64,000 nucleotides of DNA from Microcoleus sp. (GTDB lineage Bacteria > Cyanobacteriota > Cyanobacteriia > Cyanobacteriales > Microcoleaceae), in assembly GCA_042408215.1 (NCBI GenBank), contig JAYFMW010000029.1, positions 64,001 to 128,000 of the forward strand, given 5' to 3'. Position numbers and translations under genes: made by a program. The notes under the pieces are model-generated. The model had not been told where the DNA came from and did no database searches. It saw only the letters and a program-made list of their open reading frames with translations. Shown here one piece after another: positions 9,729 to 49,571 of the stretch (positions within the stretch are counted from its first letter, which is position 1; every line of letters begins with the position of its first letter).

Positions 9729-11579
9729 TCAACCCTTCTTCTGGGGTGGCAGCTTAGTTTTCCAATTGGCGATCGCCTTCTGAGCAGGTTGATAACTCTT
9801 GGTACCAGACGGCACCAGCGAAGCAGCTTGAACTGCCTCTTTCAGCCGGCCTTGAGAACTGCGTAACTGAGCAATCTTGAAAATAGTTTCGCTCCACTCT
9901 CCTATCAATCGCTGAGCTTCTTCATACTTCGGCTGACCGGACTTAATTTGATTAGCTTTCTGGATGCCCTTACTGTAAGAAGAGACATCGCCCCGCTTAA
10001 TTTGTGCCTTCGCAGCAGATAGCAGAGCCACATTGATCTGCTGTTCTTTGGATAGCTCCTTCCACTGTGCGATCGCCTCCTGAGACTGATTGTAAGCCGG
10101 CTTATTGAGATCAGGCATCAATTTAGCCGCCCCGATCGCCCCCTGGAAATCGCCCCGAGCCGCCCGCCCGTTAGCTATATCCAAAATCGTCAAACTCCAG
10201 CGATCTATATCCTGCTGAGCCTGCGGGTAAAGCGGATCGGTAGGCGGAATCGTTCGAGCCACTTCCACCGCTTTATTAAAACTCGAAGCCGAACCATCCT
10301 TGAGGAAAGTTTTCGCCTCAGCCCACACCTGCTGGCTCGACGGCTGCGGCTTGCTTTGGGTGCGGGCCGGTACAATCGTCGGGTTGTTCTGCGCTCTACT
10401 GGCACCAGCAGACCTTTGAGGCGGAGGATTCTGGGCCTTCTGGGCCCTCGTGGGAGGGTTTCCTTCCTGCTGGCCTACAAAAATTGACCGATTCGTCACA
10501 AACACACCCAACAACAGCACCAGAGCCGTAGCTCCGCTCCACAAAATTAGCTGCTGCAAAAATGACTTGTCCGACCCCACAGGCTCCAAATCCTCCGGCT
10601 TTTGCAAATTCGGTCGCTCCTCACCCCCGTCCGTCGGCCGGACTGTATTCGGTGCAGATACCTGACTCGGCATCTGGGCTGGCGATTCCTCAGAAGTACG
10701 AGCCGCCGCCGGCAACTCCTCTTTGACAAACAACTGAGCCGTCGCCGTGGCCATTTGCGGGCGATCGTACCCATTAATCTCGGCCCCAACCGCCACATTG
10801 CCGTTGCGTCCCGCCAACGCAGTAGTTGGCATCTCAGAGACATCCGGCAAAATCACCAAATGAGCTTTTCCCGGAGGATTCACCACCATCAAAGGTTCCT
10901 GTTTGGGACGCAAATGGTGGTCGCACAGCTCAGGCAGTCGATCGCTCAAAAAGCGGTCTAAACCCTTAACCGTCATGCACTGGCCCGATCGCAGCCCCTC
11001 CAAAAGCGCCGTCGTAAAAAACCCTTGGCGGAGAGCAGAAGTTTCCCGCGAAACTTGATTCGGGCGACAAGAAAGCAGCGTGGGAATTTCCAAATCCCGC
11101 GCCAACTGGGCCGTTTCCACCCCGATAGTTTCCCCCGCTTTCACGCTCTGGCTGCGGTTCATGTCAACCAGCACCAACACCGTTTCCGTAGGAGCATTTT
11201 TCAGAGTATTCAACAGCAACTGTACCGGAATCCCCGTACCCTGAATGTCCGCCGGATTACCATCCACCGGCATCAAATAATCCTTGCCTTCATAGCTGAC
11301 ACCGTAGCCACTAAAAAAACACCAGAGTACATCTCCTTGTTTCAGGTGTTCGGTACACAGAGTTTCCGTCAACCTCAGAATATTTTCCCGATTTGGATAA
11401 GTTGAGTGACCCCACAGCGACGGACTCGTATCCGTCATCAGTAGACATCCATCTGGCGAAAAACCAGCCTCCTCAACCAAAAAAGCGTACAGTCCCTCTG
11501 CATCCAATGCGGCATAACTCAAAGGCTGGAGTAACTGATATTGATTAATGCCTATGGCAATACAAGCGTGATGTTTCAT
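9729..11579 (-). CDS. membrane-anchored caspase-family (peptidase C14) pseudo-orthocaspase
   Basis: AIGINQY, FFSGYG (His to Tyr), LVDMNRS (Cys to Asn), one TM helix, C-terminal helical repeats (A+..I..W). Confidence 0.9.
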   Translation of the reverse strand: MKHHACIAIGINQYQLLQPLSYAALDAEGLYAFLVEEAGFSPDGCLLMTDTSPSLWGHSTYPNRENILRLTETLCTEHLKQGDVLWCFFSGYGVSYEGKDYLMPVDGNPADIQGTGIPVQLLLNTLKNAPTETVLVLVDMNRSQSVKAGETIGVETAQLARDLEIPTLLSCRPNQVSRETSALRQGFFTTALLEGLRSGQCMTVKGLDRFLSDRLPELCDHHLRPKQEPLMVVNPPGKAHLVILPDVSEMPTTALAGRNGNVAVGAEINGYDRPQMATATAQLFVKEELPAAARTSEESPAQMPSQVSAPNTVRPTDGGEERPNLQKPEDLEPVGSDKSFLQQLILWSGATALVLLLGVFVTNRSIFVGQQEGNPPTRAQKAQNPPPQRSAGASRAQNNPTIVPARTQSKPQPSSQQVWAEAKTFLKDGSASSFNKAVEVARTIPPTDPLYPQAQQDIDRWSLTILDIANGRAARGDFQGAIGAAKLMPDLNKPAYNQSQEAIAQWKELSKEQQINVALLSAAKAQIKRGDVSSYSKGIQKANQIKSGQPKYEEAQRLIGEWSETIFKIAQLRSSQGRLKEAVQAASLVPSGTKSYQPAQKAIANWKTKLPPQKKG

Positions 11580-12096
11580 AAAAAAATTCGGTAAGTGGGA
11601 AACTCAGTCACCAAGAGTGCTGAGAGGGAAACGGCAAGGCGGTTTCAACACTTCGACTTCGCGAGGGTGACCGCCGCCTTGAATCTTTCCATTACAGCGA
11701 TCGGGAATTGCTTAATGGGAGTGTACTTTTGTAATGTACTTTCAGTGGGACTCGGCGGAGTTGATCCGCTCGCGTAGCCGAAGGGCGAGCGTGCATCCCA
11801 ATTACCACTTCAAACTTCGCAATCCTGTACGCATAATGTTCGCTCCTTGCGGAGCCTCCCTTTCGGGGTAATGTTAGCTTGCCCCTTAGTTAACGGTCGG
11901 TACTATATCTAGGACACTGATTTAACTCAATAAGTCTGTTTAATCCTAGATTTCTAGAGCAGGGAACTAGCGAGAGCATTCCCTGGTAGGTCTTTAACTC
12001 TTACCGTTAACGTAGTACGCAGGGTACTGAGTCTGGTCAACTGCGATTTAAGTCTTAGGCTAGAAGCGAGCGTGTCTTTAGACCTGGGTCGTTGAC
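11580..12096 (-). mobile_element. non-autonomous IS200/IS605 element carrying a HEARO/omegaRNA, no iscB
   Basis: Minus strand GTCAAC...GTTGACCAGACTCAG...CTACGTT...GCTAGTTCCCTGCTCT...TTAAACAG...AAGCTAACATTACCCC; plus strand TCAT target, GAAA guide and CTCAG/CTGAG hairpin at one end, TGAC at the other. Confidence 0.85.
11860..12096 (-). ncRNA. HEARO / IscB omegaRNA scaffold
   Basis: Ordered HEARO hallmark motifs as above; 3' boundary approximate. Confidence 0.75.
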
Positions 12097-12713
12097 CGCC
12101 TTAAATACATAGTAAACAGCTTGCACAAAACGATAACACATCGCCGCTTCAGGTTAACCCCACACAGGTAGAAGTCAATCGATTTGAGATTTGAGATTTG
12201 AGATTTGAGATTTGAGAGGCGACCCCACGGCCTGTACCGTTCTCCGGTTGCTCGGAGCGGTAAATCAACCTAATTAAACCTAAAACGCTATAGCGATGCC
12301 GCTCCCCCACAAATGAAGGCGAATTCGGGGATCTGGGTGTTCTGTTTTTTGACGTTTTTTATTTCTGGACGGATGAATCCGGGGGCAAGAGACCCTATTG
12401 CTTTCGGTCACAACCAACCAAAAACTGAAAATGCCAGAATTTTTGAGATGGCAGTCAAAAAATCTGCCCTGTACCTTTGGAATAATCAGGTTAAATTAAA
12501 TACATAGGCCGGTCAATTGGCGATCGGAGTTGATCGGCTCAAAAGACCAACAATTGCCGGCAAGCAATAGTACCTTCCCCTTGGAGGAAGTGTTCAGTGG
12601 CTACCTTGCCAAAGTTTTCGTATTTGCAAAGACAGTACCTGCCTGACTATCCTAAAACTTTGCCATTTGACCTGAATTTTCAGCAAACTACACCAAAAAG
12701 GAGTAACCTAAAT

Positions 12714-48103: not shown

Positions 48104-49165
48104 CTACGCCAAAACAGGCACCGGTTGCGGCCAGCGACCCATTACTTTACCAATAACCGCCAATTCTCCCATCAACTTGTCGAACTGATCCGGTGTTAAA
48201 GATTGCGGCCCATCAGACAAAGCTTTTTTCGGATTCGGGTGCACTTCTATCATCAGGGAATCAGTACCAGAGGCGATCGCAGCAAACGCCATTGACGGTA
48301 CAAACTGAGCCCAACCGGTGCCGTGACTGGGGTCAACCATAATCGGTAAGTGAGTCAGAGTTCGCAATACTGGAACCGCCGACAAATCCAGCGTATTCCG
48401 CGTATACTGCCTGTCATACCCGCGAATTCCGCGCTCGCACAAAATCACGTTCGGATTGCCAGAAGCCATGATATACTCAGCAGCCATCAACCATTCTTCA
48501 ATGGTTGCGGAAATGCCGCGCTTCAGCAAAATCGGTTTGTCTTGAGCTCCGACTTTTTTCAACAGTGAGAAATTCTGCATATTTCTCGCCCCGACTTGAA
48601 CCACGTCGGCTACTTCCACGATCGCAGTTAAGTCCGCCGCATCCATAACTTCGGTGATAATTCCCAAACCGCTAGCTTCCCGCGCCGCAGCTAGCAATCC
48701 CAAAGCACTCTCGCCGTGGCCTTGGAAAGCGTAGGGGGAAGTTCTCGGTTTGTAGGCTCCACCGCGCAGAAAATGAGCACCAGCAGCTTTGACGCGCATT
48801 GCCGTTTCAACAATCATTTCTTCGTTTTCGACGGAGCAAGGCCCTGCTACGATCGCGATCGGGTGGTGCAGGCCGATCGTCACAGTTCCTAAAGGAGTAG
48901 CGACTGCTACGGCGCTGGGTTCACCTTGACGGTATTCCAGACAAGCGCGTTTGTAGGGCTTTTCCACTCGCAGCACTTCCTCAATCCAGGTGCTCATTTC
49001 GCGCAGTTGCATGGGTTCGAGCTCGGCGGTGTCGCCCACCAAACCCATGACTACTTTGTAACGCCCGACTATTTTTTCTGGTATCAAACCCCAGTTAGTG
49101 CGGAGATCTTCGTCTAGGCGATCGATTTCGGCTTCTGGAGTGCCGGCTTTCATTACAATAATCAT
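48104..49165 (-). CDS. aroF: 3-deoxy-7-phosphoheptulonate (DAHP) synthase, class I-beta
   Basis: MIIVMK regulatory domain, AGPCSVE, RGGAYKPRTSPY, GARNMQN, DPSHG. Confidence 0.96.
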   Translation of the reverse strand: MIIVMKAGTPEAEIDRLDEDLRTNWGLIPEKIVGRYKVVMGLVGDTAELEPMQLREMSTWIEEVLRVEKPYKRACLEYRQGEPSAVAVATPLGTVTIGLHHPIAIVAGPCSVENEEMIVETAMRVKAAGAHFLRGGAYKPRTSPYAFQGHGESALGLLAAAREASGLGIITEVMDAADLTAIVEVADVVQVGARNMQNFSLLKKVGAQDKPILLKRGISATIEEWLMAAEYIMASGNPNVILCERGIRGYDRQYTRNTLDLSAVPVLRTLTHLPIMVDPSHGTGWAQFVPSMAFAAIASGTDSLMIEVHPNPKKALSDGPQSLTPDQFDKLMGELAVIGKVMGRWPQPVPVLA

Positions 49166-49571
49166 CAGAAAAATGGGTAGAAACCCCGTCTTTTTAGGAC
49201 GGCTTTACAGTTTTAGCGCTACTGCCTTGGGGTTGCTGGACTTGGTGTACTTTTGTAATGTACTTTCGACGGGACACTTACCGTCTCAAGTTTGACAACC
49301 CTGTACACATAGCGTTTTGCACGGGTTGTGCCTCCCTTACGGGGTAATGTTAGCTTCGACCTGTTACAAGAGTTTTTTAGGCTTGCAACACTGTTCCAGT
49401 GACCTTAGAACTGTTTAATCACAAGCGACAGAGCGGGGGACTAGCTACGCATCCGCCCGGTGTCGTGACTCAAATAACGTTTACCCAACGATCGCGTTGC
49501 GGTGGTCTGGTCAGGATGGCTTGCTAGATTTCTCTTACAAGCCTCATGCCGTCAGGGCTGAGGTTCCTGAC
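49166..49571 (-). mobile_element. non-autonomous IS200/IS605 element carrying a HEARO/omegaRNA, no iscB
   Basis: Minus strand GTCAGGA...TCCTGACCAGACC...ACGTT...GGATGC..GCTAGTCCCCCGCTCT...TTAAACAG...GTCGAAGCTAACATTACCCC; plus strand TCAT target, GAAA guide and hairpin; CAAG guide, hairpin and TGAC end. Confidence 0.88.
49335..49571 (-). ncRNA. HEARO / IscB omegaRNA scaffold
   Basis: Ordered HEARO hallmark motifs; 3' boundary approximate. Confidence 0.78.

Follow-up and report, generated by a model that had tools for sequence, protein, structure and literature searches.

Short gene-less mobile elements known as PATEs, some of which encode omegaRNAs, have been described (Meers et al., preprint 10.1101/2023.03.14.532601), and PATEs are also mentioned by Kapitonov et al. 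2016 (PMC4810608), according to whom cyanobacterial ISC1 transposons have a 5'-GTCA terminus and an N/ATGA target. In OgeuIscB, the protein reads the bases of a single-stranded linker at the end of the omegaRNA scaffold, and its PLMP domain binds the two terminal hairpins that come next (PMC9640706); these statements, like those cited further below, refer to the available sections of the respective sources. Gene-less omegaRNA elements are thus familiar in outline. Here we analyzed a 64,000-nt stretch (the window) of a Microcoleus sp. genome of 7.36 Mb in 30 contigs, namely positions 64001-128000 of contig JAYFMW010000029.1 (C29), which holds two such elements on its minus strand. Both are IscB-less, PATE-like ISC elements (IS200/IS605 family) whose ends agree with those of ISC1, and in both the place of iscB is taken by the core of a noncoding, structured RNA domain of about 100 nt with helices P1, P2, P2b, P3, and P4. 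The small open reading frame (ORF) within it, which invites misreading as a peptide gene, is not a gene.

The two elements, copy A and copy B, share the same landmarks (window positions):

12096-11580, minus strand: copy A element, 517 bp
49571-49166, minus strand: copy B element, 406 bp, borders set by the empty site of a congener
11868-12096, minus strand: copy A omegaRNA (HEARO) scaffold, RF02033, 115.8 bits
49344-49571, minus strand: copy B omegaRNA (HEARO) scaffold, RF02033, 133 bits
11842-11868, minus strand: copy A hairpins, P0 (CCCC-GAAA-GGG, 11858-11868), then the variable P0b (11842-11855)
49334-49344 and 49319-49331, minus strand: copy B hairpins P0 and P0b, from the minimum-free-energy fold
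11689-11838, minus strand: copy A RNA module core (P1, P2, P2b, P3, P4), matched by covariance model R1 at 75687-75848 of the contig, 85.3 bits
49217-49314, minus strand: copy B RNA module core (P1-P4), R1 match of 117.4 bits, holding the small ORF and the 23-mer
11802-11834, minus strand: copy A small ORF MRTGLRSLKW (ATG 11834-11832, TAA 11804-11802)
49278-49310, minus strand: copy B small ORF MCTGLSNLRR (ATG 49310-49308, TAA 49280-49278)
11721-11743, minus strand: copy A 23-mer, made up of J3/4 (GAAA), P4 (GUAC-AUUACAAAA-GUAC), and 2 bases
49245-49267, minus strand: copy B 23-mer, identical to that of copy A

Both scaffolds exceed the RF02033 gathering score of 83 and are therefore members of that family. 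What a preliminary description of this DNA had read off the two copies (GGGAG, the short hairpins, the 10-codon ORFs, the stems AGTGG/CCACT and GACGG/CCGTC, and the identical 23-mers) is all present at these minus-strand positions. In both copies the scaffold leads into CCCC-GNAA-GGGAGG, with the short hairpin next. The module itself has the following helices:

P1: C-AUUA-UGC with GCG-(G)-UAAU-G, closing the domain and holding the AUG
P2: GGGUUGC with GCAACYCC
P2b: continuation of P2 beyond an internal loop, P2/P2b being one long bent helix
P3: NNNGG, loop UAAYUGUC, CCNNN, the loop holding the UAA
P4: GURC, 9-nt loop, GYAC, lying within the 23-mer

Comparison of homologous copies supports this fold. 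RNAalifold predicted 26 pairs, 17 of them with compensatory changes, from 69 distinct insertion-free copies (14 from the same genome and 55 from other cyanobacteria; 20 of the 89 candidate stretches were dropped because of nested insertions or a missing scaffold end). On a tighter alignment of 67 distinct rows, 29 named pairs were compared with controls in which the partners were slid by 1 to 3 columns. Standard pairing was seen in 94.9% of the cells versus 32 to 44% with slid partners, and changes on both sides of a pair occurred in 18 of the 29 pairs (180 cells) versus 2 to 8 pairs (4 to 37 cells) in the controls; none of 500 column shuffles reached any of the five measures, and a wider alignment gave a like picture. 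Compensatory changes thus lie well above the controls, as in structured RNAs generally, and copy B by itself folds into the same helices (-32 kcal/mol; z = -4.46; 0 of 200 shuffles as stable). Among 1,935 cells, G·U pairs outnumbered A·C pairs about eightfold (278 versus 33), which indicates that the fold is selected on the omegaRNA strand; going by a statement in the Meers et al. preprint and by general knowledge of the IS200/IS605 family, this would be the strand opposite to that on which TnpA acts.

The 23-mer, earlier thought to be invariant, is not so outside the window: just 3 of the 18 matches in the same genome (up to 3 mismatches, 85 to 134 nt past the scaffold end) are exact, and it also varies among 28 copies ascertained by covariance model, at three P4 loop positions and one stem pair. 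Invariant in those 28 are UAUGCG, GGUAAYUGUCC, UGAAAG, the P4 stem, ACAAAAG, and most of CCAAGGCGG. The third P4 pair is A-U in 43 copies, G·U in 18, G-C in 4, and U-A in 1; a 3' C appears exclusively alongside a 5' partner G (4/4), and there is one U-A swap. Because this variation follows the stem, the 23-mer behaves unlike a direct-repeat protein site, and that reading was rejected. Nor is the 23-mer an element terminus, as one of two distal end types lies 3' of it. By eye, the start of the module (GC-AAACAUUA-UGCG-UACA-GGG; window 11831-11841) and the end of the scaffold (GCUAACAUUA-CCCC-GAAA-GGG; window 11865-11875) are alike at 14 of 24 positions when these stretches and the equivalent positions in other copies are compared, and the module may have arisen by duplication of the linker and terminal hairpin.

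Searches of Rfam 15 gave no match for the module of copy A at E values up to 10; that of copy B had two, both on the other strand (E values of 3.4 and 6.9) and neither above gathering, and RF02033 itself did not match the module. Promoter-like or terminator-like sites on the sense strand of either module did not exceed chance, and neither module has the GC-rich hairpin and T run of an intrinsic terminator on that strand. A further candidate, antisense pairing with the iscB start, was suggested by partial complementarity of the 23-mer to codons 3-9 of the commonest iscB subfamily and was found unsupported: predicted duplexes of -10.5 to -11.7 kcal/mol, within the top 1.3 to 3.4% of 3,000 background gene starts, were obtained for 5 of 16 iscB starts, and the other 11 were ordinary.

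How the small ORF fares among homologues bears directly on the preliminary view of it as a conserved 10-codon leader peptide or upstream ORF. Ten codons are present in both window copies, as had been noted, and in 35 of the 69 surveyed copies; the frame has 5 codons in 16 copies, and 4 codons in 5 (one with an ACG start), whereas it is extended or out of phase in the remaining 13 (14 to 30 codons, or open throughout the stretch read; one with ACG). Although the ATG is retained in 67 copies and replaced by ACG in 2, start, phase, and stop are not conserved together, and changes within the frame track base-pair partners rather than codon positions. Most of the 13 longer or frameshifted frames have GCGTACAG replaced by GCGATCGC. 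At the junction after P1 (window 11826-11830 and 49302-49306), this replacement is seen in 9 of the 69 copies and shifts the frame by one base with the helices undisturbed; GCGATCGC is the cyanobacterial palindrome HIP1. Each base of the ATG is paired within P1, in 67, 66, and 67 of 67 rows, respectively, and the UAA sits in the P3 hairpin loop, so that the retention of both is accounted for by the RNA fold. Between the frame and the host ATG lie about 110 to 250 nt, a distance set by the type of distal end and by nested insertions.

The module is confined to elements that lack iscB. The genome has 70 HEARO matches, and a scan for frames of 380 codons or more whose start is no farther than 120 nt from a scaffold listed 19, their products beginning with MSNFVFVLD or similar; one of these matches the Pfam families RRXRR and HNH. 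Profile hidden Markov model and covariance model alike found 22 copies of the module in this genome, none of them in a full-length iscB element, and nhmmer with the module profile against both strands of the whole genome returned module copies only, without a match in iscB or its flanks. An origin from iscB termini, the test by which the module could have turned out to be deletion debris, was accordingly rejected; together with the covariation, this bears out the earlier suggestion of a selected module. The module combines with two distal end types, and full-length elements with the same distal end lack it.

Its distribution reaches well beyond the genus. An exact 21-mer, GAAAGTRCATTACAAAAGYAC, searched in one genome per species, was present in at least 114 stretches, and the 80 fetched came from Microcoleus, Tychonema, Scytonema, Calothrix, Nostoc, Dolichospermum, Stigonema, Tolypothrix, Plectonema, Spirulina, Phormidesmis, Limnofasciculus, Kamptonema, and other cyanobacteria. 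A scaffold lay on the same strand 68 to 255 nt upstream of the motif in 65 of these 80 loci, the longer distances reflecting nested insertions; among the 15 without one, the locus extends less than 150 nt upstream in 8 and at least 300 nt in 7. No IscB similarity was found by tblastn within 450 nt on each side of any of the 80. Covariance model R1, built from the core alone (111 positions, 29 pairs), was applied to a phylum-wide sample of 151 genomes and detected the domain in 16; these belong to three families of a single GTDB order, and the highest number of copies scored in one genome was 25. In 25 of 28 R1 loci from the 15 other genomes, a scaffold lay about 20 nt upstream, and tblastn found no IscB similarity within 1.5 kb on each side of any of the 28. 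All 16 module-bearing genomes are among the 26 with an IscB match at an E value of 1e-10 or better, and the module is in none of the 125 without IscB; two carriers (G119 and G148) have IscB only as fragments or a weak match. Thus, none of the domain copies adjoins iscB, and no genome without IscB matches carries the domain; the latter co-occurrence is an association among genomes related to one another.

Contigs assembled from RNA libraries of three studies cover part of copy B:

48960-49369: RNA contig X1, 2 other letters
48913-49369: RNA contig X3, 19 other letters
48930-49410: RNA contig X8, 8 other letters

Each of them runs from the host ORF through the distal end and the module into the 3' part of the scaffold, which lends weak support to co-transcription of these parts. 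The scaffold has a far greater summed contig depth than the module, a difference that carries no weight because contigs cannot rank transcript parts; contig X5 stops at 49232, which may be an assembly break at a repeat.

Very probably, then, the anatomy is that of a structured noncoding RNA domain in IscB-less, PATE-like ISC elements, flanked on one side by the omegaRNA and on the other by the distal end. For its role we tentatively propose a 3' stabilizing, processing, or insulating domain for a guide RNA that relies on IscB in trans, which we regard as possible; anatomy and role together make up the explanation toward which we lean with moderate confidence. A host promoter would transcribe guide, omegaRNA, domain, and host gene as one RNA, with IscB and TnpA supplied in trans. 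The domain would stand in for the iscB mRNA as a stable 3' structure, by which the 3' end of the orphan guide RNA would be protected or processed and its fold kept separate from the translation start of the host gene, and the peptide frame would be a by-product of the fold. The linker AACAUUAC, P0, and P0b fit the plan of the OgeuIscB scaffold end, and the domain is an addition beyond that plan.

This role is favored because full-length copies manage without the domain and because other gene-less copies carry a different structured filler at the same place. The second filler is found in about 22 other gene-less HEARO elements of the genome, none in the window (for example, L019 at C28:194887-198105, L020, L021, L022, and L023). 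It starts with a tandem pair of hairpins in which the stems vary and the loop CAACCAUA is conserved (such as GGAGA-CAACCAUA-UCUCC and GGAGGGG-CAACCAUA-CCCCUCC), followed by a CCCC-GNAA-GGGG hairpin of the GNRA type, and is joined to the same two distal end types. The existence of a second, unrelated filler argues for a generic need of structure at this position.

Several points weigh against our favored explanation. Full-length iscB elements lack the domain, which is therefore dispensable for omegaRNA function as such. There are several near-invariant unpaired stretches (UAUGCG, GGUAAYUGUCC, UGAAAG, ACAAAAG, and CCAAGGCGG), more than a passive stabilizer would call for and no less in keeping with a ribozyme core or a protein site. 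Because the exact 21-mer served to find 55 of the 69 aligned copies, its conservation in alignments A2 and A3 is biased, and the less biased, model-ascertained set comprises 28 copies only. The strand relation to TnpA draws on one preprint statement plus general knowledge, and assembled contigs show neither transcript ends nor strand and come from RNA libraries that can include DNA.

The conserved unpaired nucleotides bring two alternatives into play, both of which we consider unlikely. In one, the domain is a self-cleaving ribozyme or a dedicated RNase site that cuts read-through RNA between the omegaRNA and the host mRNA; such a cut would set the guide RNA loose and leave the host message unencumbered. 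A ribozyme would be in keeping with the compact arrangement of several helices around a junction, in which unpaired nucleotides at junctions and in loops hardly vary, and with the sense orientation of the element immediately upstream of host start codons. According to a 2026 review (PMC13565253), an IStron transposon transcript acts as a self-splicing ribozyme or as an omegaRNA, and HEARO and RAGATH-18, named for its twister/hammerhead link, came from the same study. However, neither copy matches a known ribozyme class in Rfam at E values up to 10, the hammerhead core CUGANGA is absent by eye (a CUGAUGA at the type 2 distal end is merely ...CTG joined to the ATGA target), the other gene-less class has quite different filler, and the RNA contigs from three studies span the whole domain, so that at least some molecules are uncut, or are DNA. 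In the other alternative, the module is a putative RNA platform or decoy for IscB, TnpA, or a host factor, outcompeting the guide RNAs of full-length elements. Its presence only in genomes with IscB matches and the conservation of loops and junctions beyond what stems require are in keeping with a platform, and the P1 5' strand repeats the AACAUUA linker motif that ends the scaffold, in an RNA whose linker bases and terminal hairpins are read in OgeuIscB by the protein and its PLMP domain (PMC9640706); the second filler likewise shows CAACCAUA in hairpin loops. Yet AACAUUA in the module is paired within P1 rather than single-stranded, and co-occurrence with IscB is expected of any nonautonomous ISC element, the compared genomes being related. 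A broader version, in which the domain is a new functional RNA class replacing the nuclease gene in guide-only transposons, whether a self-cleaving or processing ribozyme or an IscB-capturing extension, with the second filler as an independent solution, is doubtful, if somewhat less so than either of these alternatives. If it were true, the ribozyme form would release the omegaRNA from host messages, and the IscB-capturing form would let gene-less elements parasitize the nuclease of full-length ones.

The remaining readings have little left to recommend them. A translated 10-codon leader peptide or upstream ORF that, with a nearby site, tunes the downstream host gene is very unlikely, despite an ATG kept in 67 of 69 copies, an upstream GGGAGG whose effective spacing to the ATG P0b could shorten, and the position of the elements on host start codons: the frame lengths given above largely refute it, the ATG bases are paired in P1 in nearly all 67 rows, frame changes follow pairing partners instead of codons, and the distance to the host ATG is variable. 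We give equally little credence to a role at the DNA level, as an extended TnpA recognition region or a host protein site at the direct repeat AAAGTACA-N4-AAAGTACA. Although this repeat is spaced about one helical turn and the module adjoins the TnpA-recognized end, full-length elements with the same distal end do without the module, the module pairs with two different distal end types, variation in the 23-mer tracks the stem and not the repeat, and the excess of G·U over A·C would put the fold opposite to the presumed TnpA strand. Least probable of all is neutral debris of one ancestral iscB deletion, spread by hitchhiking. All copies do share the same junction directly after GGGAGG; against this, covariation in 18 of 29 pairs contradicts the reading, the module is more similar between the window copies than the scaffold is (69% versus 53% identity), its profile has no match in iscB or flanks on either strand, and it is present in three GTDB families, with the 21-mer in many named genera.

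The remaining parts of the two elements and their targets are as follows:

11751-11800, minus strand: copy A nested insertion in the P3 loop, a short dispersed hairpin repeat and not part of the module
11580-11688, minus strand: copy A spacer and type 1 distal end, two hairpins and then ...GAGTTTCCCACTTACCGA-T run
49166-49216, minus strand: copy B type 2 distal end, CCGTC-CTAAAAA-GACGG hairpin and then GGTTTCTACCCATTTTTCTG
11576-11579, minus strand: copy A ATGA target, at the start codon of a 616-amino-acid caspase-domain gene (9729-11579)
49162-49165, minus strand: copy B ATGA target, at the start codon of a 353-amino-acid DAHP synthase gene (48104-49165)

The scaffold of copy A begins (GTCA...) at the transposon end, and its guide is the host DNA directly upstream. 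P0 of this copy carries GGGAGG, which in full-length copies, reading CCCCGCAAGGGAGGACTTAAATG, is the iscB Shine-Dalgarno sequence; the stem of P0b (GCTCC/GGAGC in copy A, GCAC/GTGC in copy B) varies in the alignment with pairing kept. Subterminal imperfect hairpins are present in both distal end types (GGCGG..CCGCC and CTCAG..CTGAG in type 1, CCGTCC..GGACGG in type 2), and type 1 is also found after the stop codon in two full-length iscB copies. Neither copy has an IscB frame between scaffold and element end. Without an iscB with RRXRR and HNH between omegaRNA and distal end, they differ from ISC elements proper and are PATE-like: short, free of protein genes, with IS200/IS605-type ends, and multicopy (22 in this genome). 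The copies are identical at 120 of 225 scaffold positions (53%) and at 66 of 96 module core positions (69%), the nested 50-bp insertion being set aside.

The borders of copy B come from a comparison of 41 genomes of the genus, its own included. The whole query was matched in 4 of the 41, and in most others the match starts no earlier than the A of the host ATG. In G165, the flanks are 1 nt apart at an empty site (...AAAAAAT/ATGATTATT, reading ...AAAAAAT/ATGATT), whereas the filled site reads ...AAAAAAT-GTCAGG...TTCTG-ATGATT without target duplication, so that copy B extends from GTCAGG (49571) to ...TTCTG (49166). Corresponding landmarks place the ends of copy A at 12096 and 11580. It is an insertion polymorphism within the genus.

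The nested 50-bp insertion of copy A is missing in 14 of 18 aligned copies from the same genome. Its core is GCTCGC...GCGAGC, and blastn-short gave 44 match rows in the genome, including the query itself, most of them partial (for example, 42 nt at 97.6% on contig C20). Similar small insertions occur in the same loop of three or four other copies and inside type 1 distal ends. As to possible sources of transposase, the Y1 family PF01797 has 20 matches in the genome, 19 above the Pfam cut-off, and 2 of 37 type 1 distal-end motifs lie within 2.5 kb of a Y1 gene (C17:182918 and C20:689457), making these candidate autonomous partners.

Both elements are sense-oriented relative to the host gene and end exactly at its start codon. 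The copy A host protein matches Pfam Peptidase_C14 from residue 5; residues 1-69 of the copy B host match positions 1-67 of DAHP_snth_FXD, an N-terminal ferredoxin-like domain. Across the genome, an ORF of 80 codons or more begins at the target ATG of 31 of the 53 elements whose distal end was recognized, compared with 17.7% of 20,000 random ATGA sites under the same criterion. Full-length iscB elements (7 of 12) abut start codons about as often as gene-less ones (24 of 41), so that this is a trait of the transposon family rather than of the module. Other host genes, judged from N-terminal sequence, presumably encode ChlB, an EF-G-like GTPase, ribosomal protein L19, and a response regulator. 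Elsewhere in the window, a heptamer run of TCTCAAA (tctcaaatctcaaatctcaaatctcaaatc) lies at about 12185-12215 on the minus strand, about 90 to 120 nt upstream of the copy A scaffold, and an ordinary, complete rRNA operon (16S, two tRNAs, 23S, 5S; 22754-27889) and two further tRNAs (374-601) are present.

What emerges is a new structured RNA domain in a known kind of element, well supported by covariation and widespread. The preliminary description knew of no account of this segment, and we likewise found none of the domain in Rfam 15 or in the literature searched on PATEs and omegaRNAs; the coverage of that search ended short of the original HEARO paper, Altae-Tran 2021 (Science, OMEGA), and supplements, so a prior mention is possible. 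The domain is a specific, covarying RNA that takes the place of the nuclease gene in many filamentous cyanobacteria and only alongside IscB. It offers a concrete object for work on the maturation, stabilization, or loading of orphan guide RNAs in trans, and it bears on how elements inserted exactly at the start codon of an essential host gene can avoid silencing it and on whether engineered IscB guide RNAs might benefit from natural 3' extensions. The tempting reading of the region as a peptide gene is corrected as well.

One of the closest described systems is the HEARO/IscB omegaRNA: the module lies directly 3' of a bona fide scaffold and terminal hairpin on the same strand and in the same mobile unit, but it falls outside the RF02033 model and is lacking from the full-length iscB elements of the same genome. 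With bacterial leader peptides and upstream ORFs it shares a short ATG-to-stop frame in a 5' untranslated region with a purine-rich stretch upstream; unlike in those, frame length and phase are not conserved, and start and stop are features of the fold. IStrons (IS605/IS607 with a group I intron; PMC13565253, available sections) resemble the present elements in that the transcript combines an omegaRNA with a second structured RNA and the element lies sense-oriented in or before host genes; here, however, neither a group I intron nor any other known ribozyme was detected, the second RNA is 3' of the omegaRNA, and the partner is IscB in trans rather than TnpB in cis. The 5'-GTCA termini and ATGA target are those of cyanobacterial ISC1 (PMC4810608). 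PATEs, finally, are likewise short and nonautonomous, with IS200/IS605-type ends, no protein gene, and a guide RNA that needs nuclease and transposase in trans; the available sections of the sources on them describe no covarying RNA domain in place of the gene, whereas here about 100 nt are under structural selection across several families.

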